This document shows positions 7,106 through 60,041 of a stretch of 64,000 nucleotides of DNA, one piece after another (within the stretch, counting starts at the first letter, position 1; every line of letters starts with the position of its first letter). The notes beneath the pieces are model-generated. The model ran no database searches and was not told where the DNA came from. It saw only the letters and a list, made by a program, of their open reading frames with translations. A program made the position numbers and the translations under genes. Source of the DNA: an uncultured Hormoscilla sp. (GTDB taxonomy: Bacteria > Cyanobacteriota > Cyanobacteriia > Cyanobacteriales > Desertifilaceae); the NCBI GenBank assembly GCA_963921275.4, contig OZ001293.3, positions 6,464,001 through 6,528,000 of the forward strand, given 5' to 3'.

Positions 7106-8473
7106 ATGGGAATAATTTTTCTGTCAGCAGGTCATGGCGGGATCGAAAGTGATGGGTTCAGGGATCCAGGGGCGATCGCCGGAAACACCACAGAAGCAAA
7201 AGAGATGATCCAACTGCGAGACTTGATAGCGGCGGACTTGCGATCGCGGGATTTTGAAGTGCTGGTGGTGCCAGACGACCTGAGTTTGCGGCGGTCAATA
7301 GACTGGATCAACATTCGTGCGAGACGAGGGGATGTATCAGCAGAACTGCATGCGGATGCCTTTTCTAACCCGGCAGTCAGGGGAGCGAGTATATATTACA
7401 TCGCCAATAACCAGGAGCGCAAGAACCATGCCGAGTTGTTGCTGCTGGCTCTGTTGCACAGGCTACCTCAACTGCGAAGTCGGGGAGCCAAACCAGATAC
7501 AGCTACAGGTGTGGGTAGTTTAGCATTTTGTCGCAACGTGATTCCCCCCTCTTTGCTGATTCAAGTAGGCTTTCTCACCAACCCGGACGATCGGTTCTTG
7601 TTGCAAAATCGACGGCGGGAAATTGCTCTGGGAATAGCGGACGGACTAGCAGCTTGGAGCCGTACTATTGACCCCATTGGTGCTCCCAGGCCCACCCCGA
7701 CTCAGACAGAGACCTATCCCACGATTAATATCAATCTTAACGGTCAAGTCTATGGGGAGCTGGGGGCGATCGTCAATGGCAACGCCTACATCCCGATCGA
7801 CCTAGTGGATAGTTTGGGGATTAACTTATCCCAAGCAAACGATGTCCGCCGCATCAATTATCGTAACATAGTCTATATCAAAGCGGTAGAGTTGCGGGAT
7901 TTCAATATCTCAGTCAACTGGGATAACAATACCCGGGCAGTAGTTTTACGCTCGGTATTGAAGATCTGCGGCGGTCAACTGGATCGAATTATGCGCCATG
8001 GTAACACGTCGGAAGTGCAGCTGATGATGTTTCTCAAAACGAACAATCCCGAAGGTCTCGACCAGTTTCCCGACATTCCCCGACTATACCGAGAAGAGGC
8101 ATCCATAGAGGGCGTCAACTATGATATCGCTTTTTGTCAGATGTGTGTAGAGACAGGATTTTTGCGCTTTGGTGGGGAAGTGCAACCCTCGCAAAATAAC
8201 TTTGCCGGTTTGGGAGATCTGTGGGCGGGGTCGGGTGGTGCTGTTTTTGCCAGTGCCAGAATTGGCGTGAGAGCCCATATTCAACAATTAAAAGCCTATG
8301 CTAGTACGGAACCTTTGGTGCAAGAGTTAGTTGCGCCCCGGTTTCGCTTTATTACTCGCGGCATTGCCCCCTTGATCGGACAGCTGAGTGGTCGTTGGAA
8401 TGCCGACACTCAGTATGGCGATCGCATTCTCTCCCTTCTCCGGCGTCTGTACGAGTCCGCTGGGTTACTTTAA
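7106..8473 (+). CDS. tftA: Amidase_3 plus glucosaminidase protein (hormogonium tapered-terminus morphoprotein TftA-like)
   Basis: IFLSAGHGG..DPGAIAG..EAKEM amidase N-terminus; C-terminal AFCQMCVETGFL..QNNFAGLG glucosaminidase. Confidence 0.8.
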   Translation: MGIIFLSAGHGGIESDGFRDPGAIAGNTTEAKEMIQLRDLIAADLRSRDFEVLVVPDDLSLRRSIDWINIRARRGDVSAELHADAFSNPAVRGASIYYIANNQERKNHAELLLLALLHRLPQLRSRGAKPDTATGVGSLAFCRNVIPPSLLIQVGFLTNPDDRFLLQNRRREIALGIADGLAAWSRTIDPIGAPRPTPTQTETYPTININLNGQVYGELGAIVNGNAYIPIDLVDSLGINLSQANDVRRINYRNIVYIKAVELRDFNISVNWDNNTRAVVLRSVLKICGGQLDRIMRHGNTSEVQLMMFLKTNNPEGLDQFPDIPRLYREEASIEGVNYDIAFCQMCVETGFLRFGGEVQPSQNNFAGLGDLWAGSGGAVFASARIGVRAHIQQLKAYASTEPLVQELVAPRFRFITRGIAPLIGQLSGRWNADTQYGDRILSLLRRLYESAGLL

Positions 8474-9134: not shown

Positions 9135-9315
9135 GTCACGGGACTCTATGACAAAGTAGCGTGACTCTATGGCAAGGTAATATTAAGTGAGGGGTTCGTC
9201 ACGTGACTCTAACGCAGAGTCACGCAACTCTAACGCAGAGTCACGCAACTCTAACGCAGAGTAGCGCTGCTTAATTGCAGAGTTACGTGACTTAATATAC
9301 TGGTCATGTGACTTT
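9135..9315. repeat. 21-nt tandem repeats (ACTCTAACGCAGAGTCACGCA x~3 plus degenerate units)
   Basis: direct inspection. Confidence 0.8.
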
Positions 9316-9337
9316 CACGCAGATGCTCCGATAACAG

Positions 9338-9605
9338 TTGCTCAAAACCTGTGGGAGTACAACGTGGCACTCCAACAAGCGGAGTTACTCGACCAGACTC
9401 GACAGCAAGCTAAAGAACTGGTCCATGCACTCTTTGCAGCAAACCCAAGCCCAGATGATTCAGAATGAAAAAATGGCCAGTTTGGGGCAGTTGGTTGCAG
9501 GTGTTGCCCATGAAATTAATAACCCGGTCAACTTATCTAGGGCAACCTCGTCCATGTAAGCGAGTACAAGATTTACTCTCTTTTGTGCAACTATACCAGA
9601 AACAT
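9338..9605 (+). pseudogene. sensor histidine kinase fragment
   Basis: [23 protein letters not shown]-box; frameshifted and truncated by a repeat cluster. Confidence 0.8.
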
Positions 9606-9804
9606 GGCGACGCACGGCGAAACTCGGGGGACAGCACTACCCCCGAGACATCGTACTCGCACAAAAGGGGAGACGCTGGCTCCTGGCCTTCCGATTTTTC
9701 CGGAACGGTAGACGCGCTCATTCAAAGTCCGATGTCACCACTTACAAGAGTCGGACCGATCGCGCAGGGGTGTGGTCAAAACCCGTTGGTAGGAGGCCTC
9801 GCCT

Positions 9805-9935
9805 TCTGTGCGCCCCGGTCGCTCGATGTCTCCCGGGAGCTCGATGTCTCGGGGGAGCGCTAATCGCACTACCCCCGAGACATCGTAGTCGCACTACCCG
9901 GGAGATATCGTAACCGCACTACCCGGGGCGCACAG
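9805..9935 (+). mobile_element. triply nested 43-45-bp palindromic mini-elements
   Basis: inner 9841-9885 lies inside middle 9823-9910, which lies inside outer 9805-9935; each has inverted arms and a GCTA.(T/C)CGCACTACCC loop. Confidence 0.85.
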
Positions 9936-10335
9936 CCCGAACCCTAAAGGGTCCGGCTACAGGAACAAAGCCCGCCTGCGCGGGCTATTTACACGCATCT
10001 AAGATGCACCCGGCTATCAACTACTTGTGACCGCACCCAAGAGACCGCTCGCGTGTCTACTCGCACAAAAGGGGAGACATCGTACTCGCACAAAAGCTTA
10101 GACATCGACGCCACATCTGGTCAAAGGCCACCAGTTCCAGGGGTTGCAGGACACTCAAATGTCGCACTCCCAACAGCATAACCGTGACCGCAAAGCTGGC
10201 AATCAAGACCCGATGTGCGATTTCGGACTGGTAGTTGAGTAATCAACTTTAGTCTTTTACCGATGCGCCCGACAATGGGAATTTTACTAAACCACTGATA
10301 ACGATGAGGCAAGTTCAGGACTGGACCAGATGATT

Positions 10336-13499: not shown

Positions 13500-13925
13500 C
13501 CTAATCTAAAATCCTTGCATCGGTGTTACATGTTTGCCATGAAAGCTTTCATCTGAGCGATAATTTCCTCTAACTGAGAGATTAACTTGGCGGCTTAATC
13601 AAGTTGGTCGGACTCTGCCAGTTGCTCGATCCTCCCTGCTAACTCTGGTATAAATCGCACTCCTACGGTGCTAGCACCTCCTTTCAGACAATGAGCGATC
13701 GGTGTCTCCTGGGTAGTGCTTCTAGGGGTCGGGAGACACCGACTGAGCTAGGGTGACTGAATTTTTGGTAGCAAGAGCTGTCTTTGCCTCTGTTAATTGA
13801 GTTTCGGCATCGGACACGAAGACTGGCAATAATTATAACTTAAACTCTGCGTCTCCTCTGGCGATAAAGTCCAGGCGATCGCCATCTACTGGAGATTCCT
13901 GATTGGTGACTAGTGCTTGGGTACT
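13500..13925 (-). pseudogene. degenerate Hpt domain, duplicate of the adjacent kinase C-terminus
   Basis: 13850-13921 nearly identical to 14270-14341; H-x-LKGGA motif; carries a palindromic element at 13700-13742. Confidence 0.75.
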
Positions 13926-13958: not shown

Positions 13959-16165
13959 CTAAAGGGTGAGGGTTGCGATCGCCTCTTGAGAAAGTTGTTG
14001 TATATATGCTTTCACCCGCGACAAGCTCTGCTCTATTTGTGCGATTAAATCTGCTGCACCCTGGAGTTGGTTTTCTTTCCCTTGAGCCTCCAGTTGAGCC
14101 GCCACCTCTGGGATAAATTTTACTGCTATTGTAGCAGCACCTCCTTTCAGGCGGTGCGCAAGAGAGACGATCGCCCCGGCATCTAAGGCAAGCAAAGCTG
14201 TTTGTAATTCCCCTAAGTCTGTTTCGGCATCTGACACAAATATCTGCAATAGTTCCAACTTAAACTCCTCGTCTCCTCTGGCGATAAGGTCCAGGCGATC
14301 GCCATCTACTGGAGATTCCTGATTGGTGACTGGTGCTTGGGAACCCGAAGCTGCAAGTGCGATCGCCTCCTGTTGAAGTTCGAGATTTTCTTTTGACCAT
14401 CGAGAAATAACGGCGGACAAATCTGCCATCGATACTGGTTTACTGAGGTAGTCATCCATGCCAGCTGCGAGGCATTTTTCCCGATCGCCCTTCATCGCAT
14501 TTGCCGTCAGGCCAATCACCACCGTATGACGTTCATCACCTTCGCGTTCCCGCAGCAAGCGCGTTGCCTGGTAACCGTCCAACACTGGCATCTGACAATC
14601 CATCAACAGAATTTGATACCATTCTTGCTCGATTTTGTCAATAAATTCTTGACCATTATTTACGCAATCAGCCTCGACACCCAGTTGTCGCAACTGATTG
14701 AGTACCACCTTTTGGTTGATGGGGGTATCTTCCACTAAGAGGATTTTAACAGCATCGTTTGTAGTAAACACTTTAGTGTTTCTACCCTCGGAAGCCCTGA
14801 AGTGCGCTGACGATTGCGCTGCGCGCACAGGGCTACGCCTACGCGAACGAACAACCGATTTGCTGACCAGGGAACTCACCAAACAATCGTACAGCGACGA
14901 TTCCTTGATGGGCTTGAGTAAATAGCCTGCAAACCCGCTTTCCCGCACGCGGTCGGCGATGTCCCCCCCATGGAGAGAAGTCAGCAGAATTAACTTCGTC
15001 TGGGCCAAAGCAGGTTCGTTTCCGATTAACTGCCTCAGCATTTCGCCGTTCATTCGGTGTCCCCGGGGAACGCTAATCGCACAAAAGGGGGGACACCGCT
15101 GCGGCATTTGCATGTCCAGTAGCGCCACCTCGTAAGGTTTGCCTTCCGAAGCTGCCTCCCGTAAAGCAGTGAGGGCGTGAGGGCCGTCTTCTGCTTCTGC
15201 AACGAACATACCCCAACTCCTGGCGAACATAGAGACCACCTTGCGATTAGTGGCATTATCGTCCACTACCAACAGCTTTTTCCCTGTGATGACTTCTGTG
15301 GAAAGATCCCTCGTCCTTTCGGACAGGGGCATGCCACATTCAGCGGCGATCGTAAACCAGAAGGTGGAACCAACCCCTTCTTCACTTTCTACGCCAATTT
15401 CCCCGCCCATCAGGGTTACCAGTTGCTTGCAAATAGCCAGGCCTAAACCCGTCCCCCCATACTTGCGGGTAGTGGAGGCGTCTACTTGAGAGAAAGATTT
15501 GAACAACTTTGGCTGAGCTGCTTTGGGAATGCCAATTCCTGTATCCCGGACGCTAAACCGAAGATGGCATTGGTTGGAGTTGACATTCCCCGTATCCACC
15601 TTGACGTGGATGACAATTTCTCCAGTTTCGGTGAATTTGAGGGCGTTGCCGATCAAATTAGTGAGCACCTGGCGCAGGCGAGTGGCATCAGCTTTGAGGA
15701 AACGCGGCACTTCTGGTTCGACTACCCCAGCTAATTCCAGACCTTTGGCAGCGGTTTGGGGCGCAAACAAATCCAGCAGGTTTTCCACTAGCTTTTTGAG
15801 GTCGAAATCATGGGCATCCAGCCGCATTTCCTCAGCTTCCAGTTTAGAAAAGTCGAGAATGTCGTTAATAATCAACAGCAGGTTCTCGCCACTGCTATGA
15901 ATAGTTTCCACAAAATCCCGTTGTTGCTGATTGAGGGGCGTTTTCAAGAGCAAATCCGTCATTCCCAGCACGCCGTTCATGGGGGTGCGGATTTCGTGGC
16001 TCATGTTGGCGAGGAATTGCGATTTGAGGCGGGCGGTTTCTAGGGCGGCTTCCCGTGCTTTTACCAATTCGTTGATGATGTCGGTTACCATGATGATGCC
16101 GCCGATCGTGCCATCGGGTTCGTACCAAGGTTGAATTGCCCAGCGGAGATATATTTGACTGCCAT
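13959..16165 (-). pseudogene. hybrid histidine kinase (partial PAS-HisKA-HATPase-REC-REC-Hpt), 5'-truncated
   Basis: [23 protein letters not shown], two REC domains, HRLKGGA; 5' part replaced by antisense FG-GAP sequence. Confidence 0.85.
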
Positions 16166-16525
16166 CGTCGCGCTGATGGATGACAGCAATGATGTCGGCG
16201 TCGATCTCTCTAGCGAAACAGATCTCAACTGGCAAATTGGCGATACTGGCGACTTCAACAGCGATGGCAACACTGATATTCTCTGGCGCAATTATGCTAC
16301 TGACGCGAATAAGGTGCAGCTGATGAATGGCACTACTGAGGGTAATGAAGTCTCTCTGGAAAGTTTGGCTGACAGTAATTAGCGCATGAGTGGCACGGGA
16401 GACTATAACAACGATGGTAATATCGACATCTTGTGGCGCAACTATGCGACTGGGGAGAATAAATTCTGGCTGATGAATGGCACCAGCAAGGACTCCGAGG
16501 TCGATCTGTTGACTGTCTCTTTGAT
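16165..16525 (+). pseudogene. FG-GAP/VCBS repeat protein fragment
   Basis: two GD(F/Y)NxDGxxDILWRNYAT repeats, internal stop, no 5' end. Confidence 0.8.
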
Positions 16526-18178: not shown

Positions 18179-18500
18179 AGACCCGCTATCAAGTATAATA
18201 TAATATAGGTGACGAGCGCGGACTCTCGGTTCGTAAAACATGAGGACTAATACCATTTTGTCAAAACAATGCTACAATTAATTTTAGCGTTATGGTATTA
18301 GTCGGTTTTAACCGACTTTAGCCTCTAGCATTTGGGTTTGAACCCTCGCTATCTCCTGGGTAGTGCGAGTACGATGTCCCCTATGCATGTGCGACTAGCG
18401 CTCCCCGGGGACATCTCCCGACCACGAGATAGCGAAGGCGGGCTGACAGCGAAGGGACCAAAGTCCTCACTACAAACCTTATTTTCAAATTCGATCGACA

Positions 18501-24614: not shown

Positions 24615-24984
24615 TAAGCACGAAGCGTGCTTCCGGGTTCTCTCGTTCCCTGCCCTGTGTCCCCCGGGTAGTGCGACTACCCGGGGGACACAGCCAGAGT
24701 CAGGGAACGTTCATCGGAGGCTCTGCCTCCAAAGTAAATCAACAACGAGTGTTTAATCTTCTCGCAGGAGGCATCCGCCTCGAAGGGATGTTTCGTTCCC
24801 TGTGTCTCGCAGGGAACGAGTGTAATTAGCTGAGGAGTTTCTTTATCTAACATAGCTGTAGGTTTTCCGATCGAGTTCTGCCAGCATCCTAGCTAATTTA
24901 GTACTCGCGAGATTTGGTAGCATCAATTCCCAGCCAACGGCGAATTTATCTTTGTCTCCCAAGTGGCGATAGCCCTAATATATG

Positions 24985-37392: not shown

Positions 37393-38418
37393 ATGCATGG
37401 GACCGTGACTCTCAGAGTTGGGATAGTTGGGACTGGTTATGCTGCCAAGATGCGGGCGCAAACCTTGCAAGCCGATCCACGCTCAGATTTGGTTACTGTT
37501 GCCGGTCACTCTCTGGAGAAAACCCAGGAATTCGCTCTTAACTATGGGGCTGAGGCGTTAAGCAACTGGCAGGATCTGGTAAATCGTTCCGATTTGGATC
37601 TAGCGTGCGTCTGTACAGTGAATCGAGATCATGGTGTCATAACTCGTGCGGCACTCAACAGCGGTAAGCATGTGGTGGTAGAATATCCCCTTTGCTTAGA
37701 TGCAACCGAAGCTGAAGAACTGATCGCTTTGGCTGCTGCTGGTGGTAAGCTGCTGCATGTGGAGCATATTGAACTTCTCGGTGGCTTGCATCAGGCTTTT
37801 AAGCAGTCATTACCGGCAATTGGTGACCCCTTTTATCTTCGCTACGCCACGATCGTCCCTAAAAGACCGGTGTCCCCTGGGATCGCTACTCGCACTACCC
37901 AGAGGACACCGCCAGCTCATTCGGGCTGGAAATATAACCGAAAGCTGTTCGGTTTTCCCCTGACTGCTGCTCTCTCCCGTCTGCACCGACTTACGGATGC
38001 CTTGGGTACAGTCGCTACCGTCAGCTGTCAAGTCCGATATTGGCCAGTAAAAGAAGATGACTATAGCGCTTGTCTATGTACTGCGCAGTTGCGGTTTGCT
38101 AATGGGGCGATCGCCGACGTGCTCTATGGTAAAGGAGAAACCTTCTGGCAGGCTGAACGGAAACTAGAAGTTCATGGAGACCAAGGAACGCTGATCTTCG
38201 ATGGCGGCGATCGGGGTTTTCTGGTGCGAGGAGAGGAAACGACACCCATAGAAGTTGCCAGTCGCCAGGGTCTATTTGCTAAAGATACTGGCATGGTGTT
38301 AGATCATTTAATCGCAGGAACGCCATTATACTTGTTTCCGGAGGCTAGTTTATACAGTCTGAAAATTGCCAATGCCGCTCAGCTCTCAGCCGCTACAGGA
38401 CAGATTGTCAATTGTTAA
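37393..38418 (+). CDS. bvdR: biliverdin reductase (Gfo/Idh/MocA family) with a 15-aa in-frame insertion
   Basis: VGIVGTGYAA, GKHVVVEYPL, LLHVEHIELLGG and FGFPL.AALSR as in cyanobacterial BvdR; start uncertain. Confidence 0.85.
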   Translation: MHGTVTLRVGIVGTGYAAKMRAQTLQADPRSDLVTVAGHSLEKTQEFALNYGAEALSNWQDLVNRSDLDLACVCTVNRDHGVITRAALNSGKHVVVEYPLCLDATEAEELIALAAAGGKLLHVEHIELLGGLHQAFKQSLPAIGDPFYLRYATIVPKRPVSPGIATRTTQRTPPAHSGWKYNRKLFGFPLTAALSRLHRLTDALGTVATVSCQVRYWPVKEDDYSACLCTAQLRFANGAIADVLYGKGETFWQAERKLEVHGDQGTLIFDGGDRGFLVRGEETTPIEVASRQGLFAKDTGMVLDHLIAGTPLYLFPEASLYSLKIANAAQLSAATGQIVNC

Positions 38419-53040: not shown

Positions 53041-54850
53041 ATGACAGAGTTTCCAGCAGAATATGATAGTCCTTGGAAGGCGGGACTAGAACAATATTTC
53101 CCGCAGTTTGTCGAATATTGCTTTCCAGAAATCTACGCAGATATAGATTGGAGTCGCGGTTACGAGTCCATGGACAAAGAGTTTGAAGAAGTGGTGCGAG
53201 ACGCGGAATTGGGCAAACGGCTGGCTGATGGATGGGGTCGAGCCGGGAATCGCTTCCCGACCCTCCCTTTCGGAACCGGACTTGCGATTTTCACCGCATC
53301 CGGCTACTGGGTACTAGGCCCTTTTCATAGGTAGACTTAATAGGAATTACTTCCGTTAGCCCTTGCCGCCTGTCTTTTCTTCCCTTTCCTGGTTTAGCGA
53401 GTGGTTGTTCTGATAACCGTTAGTATCACCATTTTCAAGTCAGTTTTACCAGTTATCCATACCTTATCCTCCACTTGCGTTTCGGATTAGTTCCGTGGCT
53501 TTTTAGGATTACTCATTCCAGCAGCTTCCTAGTATCACCGACCCACGTCAGCGCTGGCTACCCAGCATCATCTACATTACTGTAGATGTTATCCCAGGAA
53601 TTACCCCGGGCATTCGCTTCTTGGGCCATCCCTCCCCCCGTGGCTTGCGCTTAACATCTAACTTGTCCTGATGGACAGCACACGAGAGGTTACTTCGTTC
53701 CCTAACAACATTTCGCGATACCTTTAGGTCCACACTATACCCCGAGAGCTATTTGAGTACTATATTAGCCAGAGTCTAAAACTAATACTAGCTACCATTT
53801 CCTTTTTAGGCCAGCGCATATAGCCTTATTTCGCTGGTTCCTTATAACGAGGCTTGCACATGTTTGCCTGCTCTAACCTTGGATATCTTTCCTAGCGGCG
53901 TCACCGGCTTAGGCTGCCAGTTATCCTACATTTGAGTCCTCGCTTAGCACCACGATGATGTCGCTTCGTAGCACCGAGGACCGGTGTCACCCCCGTACCT
54001 GGGAGGAGGGGAATTTAACCCCCATGCGGTCAGAGTTCCCGGCTAATGAAACCGGGCTAGCGTTCCGTGTTTGACCACGTTAGGCTAGAACGAATCGCAC
54101 AAAATCTTTAAAGTTTGGCTGCTGGATGGAACCGAGACTTGGATCCTCATCCACGTTGAAGTTCAGAGCCAGTATGAGTCAAATTTTGAAAGGCGGATAT
54201 ACGTTTATAACTATCGGTCTTTCGATCGCTTCCGCAAACCGGTGATTAGTTTGGTAGTATTGGCAGATGAGCGGCAAAATTGGCGACCATCATCTTACGG
54301 ATACAAATTTGACGGTTTTCGACTCCATTTAAGATTTCCGATCGTCAAGCTGTTGGACTACGAGCGGAATTGGGAGGCTTTAGAGCAAAGTCAAAGTGAA
54401 AATCCCTTCGCCGTAATGATCATGGCCCATCTCAAAACCAAAGCTACCAAAGACGATATGGAACAGCGGCGGCAGTGGAAATGGACTCTCGTTCGCGGAC
54501 TGTACTCCCGAGGCTATAATAGGAATGACATCTTGGAGCTTTTCCGGTTAATCGATTGGATGATGACTCTACCAGAAGAGTTGCAAACTGCCTTTGAACA
54601 ACAAGTCGAACGTTATCAGGAGGAGAACAAAATGCCTTTACTGAGTCAGATTGAAACACGGGCCATGCGAAGAGGAACGGAACTGGGGATCCAACAGGGG
54701 GTCCAACAGGGGGTATTACGGAGTGGCCGCAAATCAGTGCTGCGGGTCTTGGAAGTGCGGTTCCAGGAAGTGCCAGAGGCGATCGCAGATACTATTAATA
54801 GCATTGGCGACGTGGACTTTTTGGATCGGCTTCACATTCAAGCTGTTGTG
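53041..54850 (+). pseudogene. Rpn/DUF4351-like PD-(D/E)XK protein interrupted by an antisense group II intron
   Basis: YDSPWK..ELGKRLAD | KIFKVW..ILIHVEVQSQ reads in frame after removing 53230-54100; 3' end lost at a junction with the convergent gene. Confidence 0.9.
53230..54100 (-). mobile_element. ORF-less group II intron (871 nt)
   Basis: 5' GTGCG; DV AGCCGGATGCGGTGAAAATCGCAAGTCCGGTTC; DVI with bulged A; boundaries fixed by the host reading frame. Confidence 0.93.
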
Positions 54851-59170: not shown

Positions 59171-60041
59171 GTGCGATTCGTTCTAGCCTAACGTGGTCAA
59201 ACACGGAACGCTAGCCCGGTTTCATTAGCCGGGAACTCTGACCGCATGGGGGTTAAATTCCCCTCCCCCCAGGTACGGGGGTGACACCGGTCCTCGGTGC
59301 TACGAAGCGACATCATCGTGGTGCTAAGCGAGGACTCAAATGTAGGATAACTGGCAGCCTAAGCCGGTGACGCCGCTAGGAAAGATATCCAAGGTTAGAG
59401 CAGGCAAACATGTGCAAGCCTCGTTATAAGGAACCAGCGAAATAAGGCTATATGCGCTGGCCTAAAAAGGAAATGGTAGCTAGTATTAGTTTTAGACTCT
59501 GGCTAATATAGTACTCAAATAGCTCCCGGGGTATAGTGTGGACCTAAAGGTATCGCGAAATGTTGTTAGGGAACGAAGTAACCTCTCGTGTGCTGTCCAT
59601 CAGGATAAGTTAGATGTTAAGCGCAAGCCACGGGGGGAGGGATGGCCCAAGAAGCGAATGCCCGGGGTAATTCCTGGGATAACATCTACAGTAATGTAGA
59701 TGATGCTGGGTAGCCAGCGCTGACGTGGGTCGGTGATACTAGGAAGCTGCTGGAATGAGTAATCCTAAAAAGCCACGGAACTAATCCGAAACGCAAGTGG
59801 AGGATAAGGTATGGATAACTGGTAAAACTGACTTGAAAATGGTGATACTAACGGTTATCAGAACAACCACTCGCTAAACCAGGAAAGGGAAGAAAAGACA
59901 GGCGGCAAGGGCTAACGGAAGTAATTCCTATTAAGTCTACCTATGAAAAAGGCCTAGTACCCAGTAGCCGGATGCGGTGAAAATCGCAAGTCCGGTTCCT
60001 CAAGGGAGGGTCGGGAAGCGATTCCCGGCTCGACCCCATCC
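59171..60041 (+). mobile_element. ORF-less group II intron (871 nt), near-identical to 53230-54100
   Basis: GTGCGATTCGTT...DV...CGACCCCATCC; only about six substitutions seen by eye between the two copies. Confidence 0.93.

Follow-up and report, generated by a model that had tools for sequence, protein, structure and literature searches.

A mobile 45-nt hairpin element that nests inside its own copies in Hormoscilla

The window, by which we mean the whole 64,000-nt stretch of DNA analysed here, comes from the genome of an uncultured Hormoscilla (the source genome, G000) and contains a nest of hairpins at positions 9806-9935. The nest is located between tftA (7106-8473) and a gene on the - strand, past a truncated histidine-kinase fragment. 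The remnant of another nest (9613-9676) comes directly after this fragment, and degenerate 21-nt tandem repeats lie upstream of it (9135-9323). A 132-aa ORF that runs into the nest (9465-9863) was rejected as a gene and taken as read-through of the broken kinase fragment. The features of the nest and its surroundings are as follows, with a slash marking a junction here and below:

9613..9676, + strand: right-half remnant of another nest, consisting of a small-loop guest and then GACATCG/TACTCGCAC
9789..9803, + strand: left part of an unrelated REP-type repeat, the insertion site of the outer copy; paralogous empty forms end GCC-GCCCGAACCC
9804..9806, + strand: TTC, the 3-nt 5' tail of the outer copy, whose C pairs with G 9935
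9807..9818, + strand: left arm of the outer copy (inverted repeat I5; un-nested paralog at G000 C1:6859607)
9819..9824, + strand: junction spacer TCGCTC, which replaces GAGCGC of the intact host; TCGGGA in G002
9825..9836, + strand: left arm of the middle copy (inverted repeat I6; parsed pair 9825-9909)
9837..9842, + strand: junction spacer GAGCTC; GATCTC in G004
9843..9884, + strand: inner copy, an intact 42-nt core with 13-nt arms and the 16-nt loop AGCGCTAATCGCACTA
9885..9910, + strand: G, rest of the loop (TAGTCGCACTA) and right arm of the middle copy
9911..9935, + strand: rest of the loop (TAACCGCACTA) and right arm of the outer copy
9936..9987, + strand: right part of the same REP-type repeat, and a second palindrome
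10036..10110, + strand: right-half remnant of a three-level nest, without left arms

An inverted-repeat parse of the window resolves 9806-9935 into three hairpins, each inside the next, such that the pairing of the arms reproduces the order of nesting: the outer arms are 9806-9819/9922-9935, the middle arms 9824-9837/9897-9910 and the inner arms 9842-9855/9872-9885. The arm sequences of the three copies differ from level to level. The original prediction had described three levels of nesting, each with an insertion; the three copies are there and their arms pair by level, but they make two insertion junctions, the loop of the innermost copy being intact. Excising the 44-nt guest in silico leaves a 43-nt host at both levels, as predicted, and the guests end directly 5' of TAGTCGCAC (9886) and TAACCGCAC (9911). 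However, 43 nt does not hold as the length of the element. A paralog of the outer copy that holds no guest and has almost identical flanks (G000 C1:6859607) measures 44 nt and reads GG-GAGCGC-TAAC, where the outer copy of the window reads GG-TCGCTC-guest-G-TAAC. The 43 nt is thus the footprint of the junction, while the intact host has 44 nt.

The 130-mer of the nest folds with z = -9.0 on the + strand and z = -11.4 on the - strand, and none of 200 shuffles reached an equal fold. For the - strand of the inner copy the predicted fold is a 19-bp stem with a T bulge and a G.T pair, closed by a 5-nt loop. Two relatives, G002 and G004, carry the same nest as G000 with a changed spacer in each; the stretch from G003 breaks off at 9935, and an orthologous stretch across the nest was not found in G001. 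Two overlapping contigs from the public run X1 (9771-9886 and 9865-9964) are identical to the nest, neither of them spanning the whole of it alone. The nest is thereby confirmed, with three hairpin-element copies and two junctions between them, and an assembly artefact is ruled out by its presence in G002 and G004 together with the matching X1 contigs.

The right-half remnants expected near 9650 and 10080 were found with the same junction, GACATCG/TACTCGCAC, at 9647-9662 and 10076-10091, both sitting on right halves without a left arm. Half-nests of this kind, with left arms only or right arms only, are common across many loci and, with the short collinear blocks relative to G002, may be breakpoints of rearrangements or deletions. 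The REP-type repeat and second palindrome at 9936-9987 resemble the repeats that flank the Y1 transposase locus L195. Rfam matched no family on the nest itself; its CRISPR-DR28 match at 9964-9987 falls on the second palindrome, and no array was seen around this match. Five further copies of the family lie in the window (13701-13740, 15056-15097, 18373-18415, 24656-24692 and 37869-37910), of which that at 15056-15097 is in frame within a hybrid kinase ORF (13959-16235).

The family was compared across five genomes of the genus, G000 and its relatives G001-G004. An arm-profile parser finds 648 arm pairs in G000 and 14 in a shuffled genome; 489 of the 648 are outermost and 159 nested, to a depth of up to seven levels, and copies of the element make up 0.58% of the G000 chromosome. 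The commonest form has 13-nt arms and the 16-nt loop AGCGCTAnnCGCACTA, and these arms also occur with other loops. The 314 loop-anchored copies have 194 different left arms between them; the number of compensated arm changes is 662, compared with a mean of 244 and a maximum of 281 after shuffling. The upper stem has changed from G:C to A:T in 14 of 147 loops, which probably form one subfamily. Into the flanks, the fraction of copies that pair is 0.91 at pair 14, 0.47 at pair 15 and 0.19 at pair 16, and TTC stands directly 5' of 118 of the 319 outermost main-loop copies in G000.

The loop pattern was present in 5 of 61 genomes, all of them Hormoscilla, with 127 exact matches in G000 and 24-61 in the other four genomes of the genus. 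Among the 80 loci listed for the family at least 73 are Hormoscilla records and 7 are single matches elsewhere. The arm pattern has 148 matches in G000, and 1-4 matches in 8 of 300 other genomes of the phylum. No published description of the family was found in a search of the main texts of mostly open literature. In G000 the loop is balanced in orientation in all 14 bins, but with so weak a GC skew and so rearranged a genome this is no test of replication-strand bias. Restriction by the host at the AGCGCT of the loop was considered and rejected, the site not being depleted (observed/expected 1.02). Four other sites, GTCGAC, ACGCGT, CGTACG and GTGCAC, are strongly depleted in G000 C1 (observed/expected 0.02-0.08), which suggests restriction systems; contig C3, at 17.6% GC, may be foreign.

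The sample of relatives covers about 2.9 Mb, much of it chosen around copies, and gave 165 mapped orthologous rows, some sites being counted from both sides. Of these rows 38 are empty-like, 61 share a copy of the same length, 52 share a copy with a changed interior and 14 are unresolved. The family is mobile, because the same sites are found filled and empty in these comparisons with relatives. In the 38 filled/empty pairs the net gain is 45 nt in 16 cases and 43-47 nt in 33. Seven of the 16 net-45 pairs are exact insertions of tail plus core, in which not a single base has been lost or duplicated: a 3-nt tail is followed by the 42-nt core, the tail is TTC in five of the seven, and six of them lie before a G. 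In other filled/empty pairs 1-6 target bases are replaced, two most often. A regular target duplication is absent from the 38 pairs, a few net-44 sites being readable as 2-4-nt overlaps. The first target base is G at 16 of 31 clean sites, and no motif longer than this first G was seen in the genomic empty sites. The loop target, which the original prediction had proposed to compare with insertion sites in genes, shares no motif with the genomic targets.

Outermost copies lie inside ORFs of at least 150 aa in 94 of 479 cases, and 80 of these 94 keep the frame; outside ORFs, 215 of 385 copies are a multiple of three in length. One copy lies in an ORF with an RpoB domain (rpoB). General hairpin targeting was rejected. 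Among 426 non-nested outermost copies 17.4% lie in repeats, compared with 15.4% of 3000 controls, and a hairpin spans the insertion site in 31.2% of the copies and in 31.2% of the controls; stable folds are slightly commoner (19.5% of the copies, 13.4% of controls). Since the non-nested sites are enriched neither in repeats nor in site-spanning hairpins, the nesting is specific to the family.

Other small elements were seen alongside. Mini-elements of 15, 22-24, 33 and 36 nt make clean insertions, many of them adjoining CGA, and such mini-elements also enter the loop of the family at AGCGCTAC/TCGCAC (e.g., G000 C1:5697211). A 25-28-nt palindrome (GTTCCCA...GGGAACGAG), of the kind that flanks the RAYT-like loci L372 and L375, is seen at window positions 9943-9949 in comparison with L001 and L002, and replaces a short A-rich stretch of G000 in 10 of 11 rows. 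One loop was found in three states in three genomes, with TACCC, with AAAAG, or filled with this palindrome, for which AAAA may be either the target or an excision scar.

The nested positions are, as predicted, non-random and fixed: the 159 nested copies among 648 compare with about 4.5 expected and a maximum of 13 in 2000 simulations that treated 30% of the genome as insertion-tolerant. Copies at deeper levels are no less likely to hold another guest (0.22, 0.29 and 0.42, then small numbers). Guests have the same orientation as their host in 118 cases and the opposite one in 2, with 15 unscored (n = 135). Two hot spots account for 178 and 69 of 700 scored right arms. At the first, the type seen in the window, the guest ends before /TA or /A with a net gain of 43 nt (10 ACCG-ended /A junctions are counted in the /TA class); at the second, GG/GA/GCGCTA, the net gain is 45-47 nt. 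A minor nested type ends before ACTCGCAC. Insertion before TA(A/G)(T/C)CGCAC, as originally read from the window, therefore describes the major spot but not the sole one. In the predicted fold both hot spots adjoin unpaired features of the host, one lying at the edge of the terminal loop and one opposite the bulge. The outer copy is shared while the guest is present in one genome only at G000 5863576/L094, 1952654/L137, 4717275/L162 and 3298284/L336. Because of these shared outer copies at orthologous sites, and because an intact 44-nt paralog of the outer copy in the window exists, we conclude that guests entered their hosts.

The guests are not a random sample of copies. At the /TA junction guest ends are of CAT type in 192 cases and of CAC type in 3. 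Copies that end in ATC and those with other ends number 158 and 20 at /TA or /A, 7 and 62 at /GCGCTA, and 174 and 279 when free, and none of the 34 ACGG-ended copies is nested. One arm class contributes 32 of 86 nested guests and 11 of 117 free copies (p = 3e-6, overstated since the copies are related), and 38 of the 86 guests share their arm with some free copy. These biases in junction ends and arms reject the idea that guests are drawn at random from the free pool.

The junctions themselves carry a more specific signature. The 76 net-43 junctions contain 66 different host-guest arm pairs, and 75 of the guests start with GAT. Across 123 junctions the guest is associated with the 6-nt spacer, nominally a piece of host DNA (p = 0.0005, overstated since copies are related), but not with the outer end of the host (p = 0.24). 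Within the same set of related copies the spacer also goes with the inner arm of the host (p = 0.0005), and there is a weak association with the outer end (p = 0.014); a preference among subfamilies could explain these links equally well. G000 has 50 occurrences of the block GGTCGCTCGATG, the spacer block of the outer junction in the window; an intact host with the left side of this block was found nowhere in G000 and twice in the sample from the relatives. One GAGCTT cassette recurs within 20 distinct host arms. A normal host at L094 has gained a spacer that is known at 9 loci of G000, and multi-base patches switch at orthologous copies, as in the spacers of the window nest and with TACCC/AAAAG in several loops. 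At G000 5758240/L288 two genomes have different cassettes in one orthologous host with the same net-43 footprint, for which de novo insertion is a possible explanation as well. RecA is intact in G000. Our inference is that spacer-plus-guest cassettes from a small number of founder junctions have been copied among sister copies. Such copying is favoured over fresh site-specific insertion because the spacer travels with the guest across unrelated hosts. The self-targeting by any copy that had originally been suggested is thus not borne out, the junction type being tied to the guest end and the spacer to the guest; of the proposed site-specific or homology-guided mechanism the homology-guided part fits best, and the exclusion of slippage stands.

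The search for an enzyme that could move the element centred on several candidates. Y1 proteins occur in all five genomes, with 20 matches of IS200-like and RAYT-like kinds; intact ones are encoded at L366, L370, L375, L377 and L381. There is no complete copy within about 1.5 kb of any of the 20 Y1 loci and 8 IS110 loci of the five genomes; the inspected Y1 loci are flanked by other repeats, and in G000 the copy closest to any of 12 candidate genes is more than 3 kb away. Both Y1 genes of G000 look damaged, one having an altered HUH motif and the other a frameshift relative to L381, and despite this G000 is the richest of the five genomes in exact loop-pattern matches. Replacement of a few bases on insertion is also seen, in 10 of 11 rows, with a type of repeat that borders a RAYT-like gene. 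A Y1/HUH transposase acting in trans is our tentative candidate, at somewhat less than even chances. It is favoured because of the REPIN-like geometry of tail plus hairpin, the strand-asymmetric bulged stem, the absence of a duplication and the behaviour of the RAYT-flanking repeat.

There are 10 serine-recombinase matches in G000; the upstream ends of the five near-identical genes inspected do not resemble the arms, and no copy of the element lies closer to them than 3 kb. The tyrosine-recombinase domain PF00589 has no match in G000, G001, G002 and G004 (completeness of the genomes 93-97%), and a match in 14 of 14 control genomes. Group II introns are abundant in G000 (in the window at 53232-53308 and 59963-60039), with 93 reverse transcriptase (RT) matches and 452 5'-end motifs; several subfamilies with different upstream exon motifs are seen. 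No autonomous insertion sequence with the same terminal repeats was found among the ends of 70 of 130 repeat clusters. At six GIY-YIG loci no gene is flanked by the element, and the 310-nt arm pair at one of the six is probably spurious. A small GIY-YIG gene is flanked by TGTCATTGCGAG repeats at L392 (G001) and L393 (G000), the G000 copy having a stop; together with these repeats it resembles the Ssn nuclease with its motif. In the available text of the Ssn paper the word 'cyanobacteria' has 0 occurrences (PMC11893778).

The reading that we prefer, with a probability of about 0.5, is that a Y1/HUH-type transposase acting in trans is likely to move the 45-base hairpin as a folded single DNA strand, and that nesting is likely due in the main to homology-directed copying, by which a few founder cassettes entered the intact loops of sister copies. 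The unit is the 3-nt 5' tail plus 42-nt hairpin core of the exact insertions, which enters without target duplication for a net gain of 43-47 nt, usually 45, and often before a G that lengthens the stem by one pair. The folded single strand might then be the mobile form, in the style of REPINs, with the Y1 transposase encoded elsewhere, though we would put the chances of this step a little below one half. Guests are found at the two hot spots beside unpaired features of the host hairpin. With somewhat better than even odds, a few ordinary loop insertions would have founded the junctions, after which spacer and guest were copied into other hosts by recombination or template switching, the homology being the arm that the copies share on one side and TAnnCGCACTA plus arm, likewise shared, on the other. 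The innermost loop stays intact, so that the step could be repeated (up to 7 levels are seen). The homologies available for such copying are about 14 and 25 nt, which is near or below the usual RecA minimum. The loss of 1-4 target bases at many sites counts against conservative HUH strand transfer; with a conservative transfer of the IS608 kind such losses are not expected. No event of excision, circle formation or conversion was observed directly; the public runs, of which four of 20 were compared, consist of contigs only, where excision and circles are not visible and joints to other copies are indistinguishable from paralogs. A bolder form of the preferred reading, possible but on balance doubtful, gives the element two modes: end-to-end insertion by an unlinked enzyme, and a homing-like conversion of loops via 14-25-base homologies that would build dolls seven deep, some of them translated (rpoB).

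Alternatively, and in line with the site-specific reading first suggested, every nested copy could be a fresh insertion, made by an enzyme that acts on the host hairpin and cuts two structure-defined positions, the ends of the guest choosing the cut by an IS608-like guide pairing. The fixed positions do adjoin unpaired bases, the 76 junctions do contain 66 different host-guest pairs, one orthologous host has different cassettes with the same footprint, and net-43 footprints in which a G-N dinucleotide is replaced also occur at genomic sites. REP transposases are moreover described, in the part of the text available, as cutting near a hairpin and as retargetable through their guide (PMC8266576). 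We nevertheless consider fresh insertion unlikely: the tails TTC, TGC and TGA pair with the loop targets by one base at most, the nominal host DNA of the spacer travels with the guest, and a left block without an intact precursor in G000 occurs 50 times. In addition, 2 of 120 scored nests have an inverted guest, yet in several genomic insertions the loop is inverted relative to the tail. An RNA route, in which group II intron RTs turn hairpin transcripts into cDNA that is joined into DNA breaks, and nesting comes about through annealing to sisters, would make the tail a run of non-templated bases and attribute the small losses to end joining. The wealth of RT matches and intron motifs in G000 (93 and 452), the variable tails with 0-4 bases lost, and a GTGCG on the - strand of the loop that is like an intron 5' end are all consistent with it. 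However, the GTGCG match of 5-8 nt may be due to chance, target duplication is absent, most tails are TTC and pairing drops abruptly beyond pair 15, as for inherited ends, and public RNA runs contain at most 0.07 of the words; we regard the route as improbable.

A classical site-specific recombinase of tyrosine or serine type, exchanging at a short core, would fit the lack of target duplication and the frequent replacement of 2 nt, and G000 has 10 serine-recombinase matches. A tyrosine-type recombinase has been proposed for the SDRs of Nostoc. Against this stand the failure to find the tyrosine type in four of the five genomes including G000 (completeness 93-97%) or a core common to element ends and targets, and the five serine-recombinase genes inspected, with their unlike upstream ends and no copy within 3 kb, and the explanation seems very improbable. 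Least of all do we expect that local slippage, duplication or misassembly made the nest. Its left halves do look like 18-nt and its right halves like 25-nt tandem repeats, and some orthologous copies have deletions and duplications in the loop, but the arms pair by level with sequences that differ between levels, whole guests of 43-45 nt are gained in one step at orthologous sites, and two further genomes as well as contigs from public runs contain the nest. Slippage as the main cause is refuted by the level-specific arm pairing and the one-step gains.

How tiny gene-less palindromic repeats such as REPINs, SDRs and the Rickettsia palindromic elements spread is a long-standing open question. 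The present element is real, mobile and self-nesting, and its family offers copies in the hundreds, exact footprints from 38 filled/empty pairs, and nested junctions at fixed positions. With these footprints and junctions, short oligonucleotides are enough to put models of cleavage and copying to the test. The family also shows that nested junctions of identical sequence are no proof of repeated site-specific insertion, since they can be inherited as cassettes. Copies in frame add peptide to housekeeping proteins. If the two-mode reading were true, the element would rank with the smallest known elements of homing-like behaviour and provide defined substrates for the question of how elements of the REPIN and SDR type move.

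Among known systems, a MITE of a DDE transposase would show a target-site duplication, unlike the 38 pairs observed here. The element shares with IS200/IS605 derivatives, as far as the available text describes them (PMC8266576; PMC6006769), the absence of target duplication, a strand-asymmetric bulged hairpin and asymmetric ends. It differs in having one hairpin and not separate left and right ends, in often losing target bases and in that no parent insertion sequence was found; in place of a tetra- or pentanucleotide target there is only the preference for a first G (16 of 31 clean sites). The CGTC/NTS repeats with the Ssn GIY-YIG nuclease, in the parts of the sources at hand (PMC3733652; PMC11893778), and the Rickettsia palindromic elements are likewise palindromic repeats that have expanded in symbionts. 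In-frame insertions in housekeeping genes are common to both and to our element, the arms of which contain TGTC. In contrast to Ssn/NTS, the small GIY-YIG gene of the genus is flanked by the TGTCATTGCGAG-type repeat and not by the element.

The SDRs of the Nostocaceae, SDR1-8, are said to measure 21-27 nt, in multiples of three. The net 43-47 nt of the element lie outside this range, although its usual 45 nt is likewise a multiple of three. In common with the SDRs, as the available descriptions give them, the element is a very small dispersed cyanobacterial hairpin with empty sites in relatives (38 filled/empty pairs) and no known enzyme. Unlike them it has long terminal inverted arms, and it lacks the HIP1 target that SDR5 has. 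The available text of one later paper reports that SDRs were not found outside the Nostocaceae (PMC5861425), whereas the element occurs outside that family; the SDR paper itself (Elhai et al., 2008) is cited there and in the accessible part of PMC4390886.

The element resembles the REPINs of Pseudomonas, in what the available text says of them (Bertels and Rainey, 2011; PMC3116915), in being a non-coding long hairpin of two inverted units present in hundreds of copies; an inverted doublet that forms one long hairpin in many copies is also what was found here. It differs in being smaller (45 nt), in being tolerated in frame in genes, and in that a cognate RAYT gene flanked by the element is absent (0 of 20 Y1 loci in the five genomes). 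Nor was a free 5' GTAG seen before a hairpin: the GTAG on its - strand lies inside the stem, is predicted to be partly paired, and is missing in the CACAAAAG variants. Higher-order clusters of REPINs are mostly tandem, the word 'nested' occurring 0 times in the text available (PMC3116915). The intermediate proposed there, in which a hairpin pairs with the target through its 5' tail, has a geometry that matches the 3-nt tail and target G of our element. In how it works the element is like REPINs and cyanobacterial SDRs; we do not claim it as a member of either.
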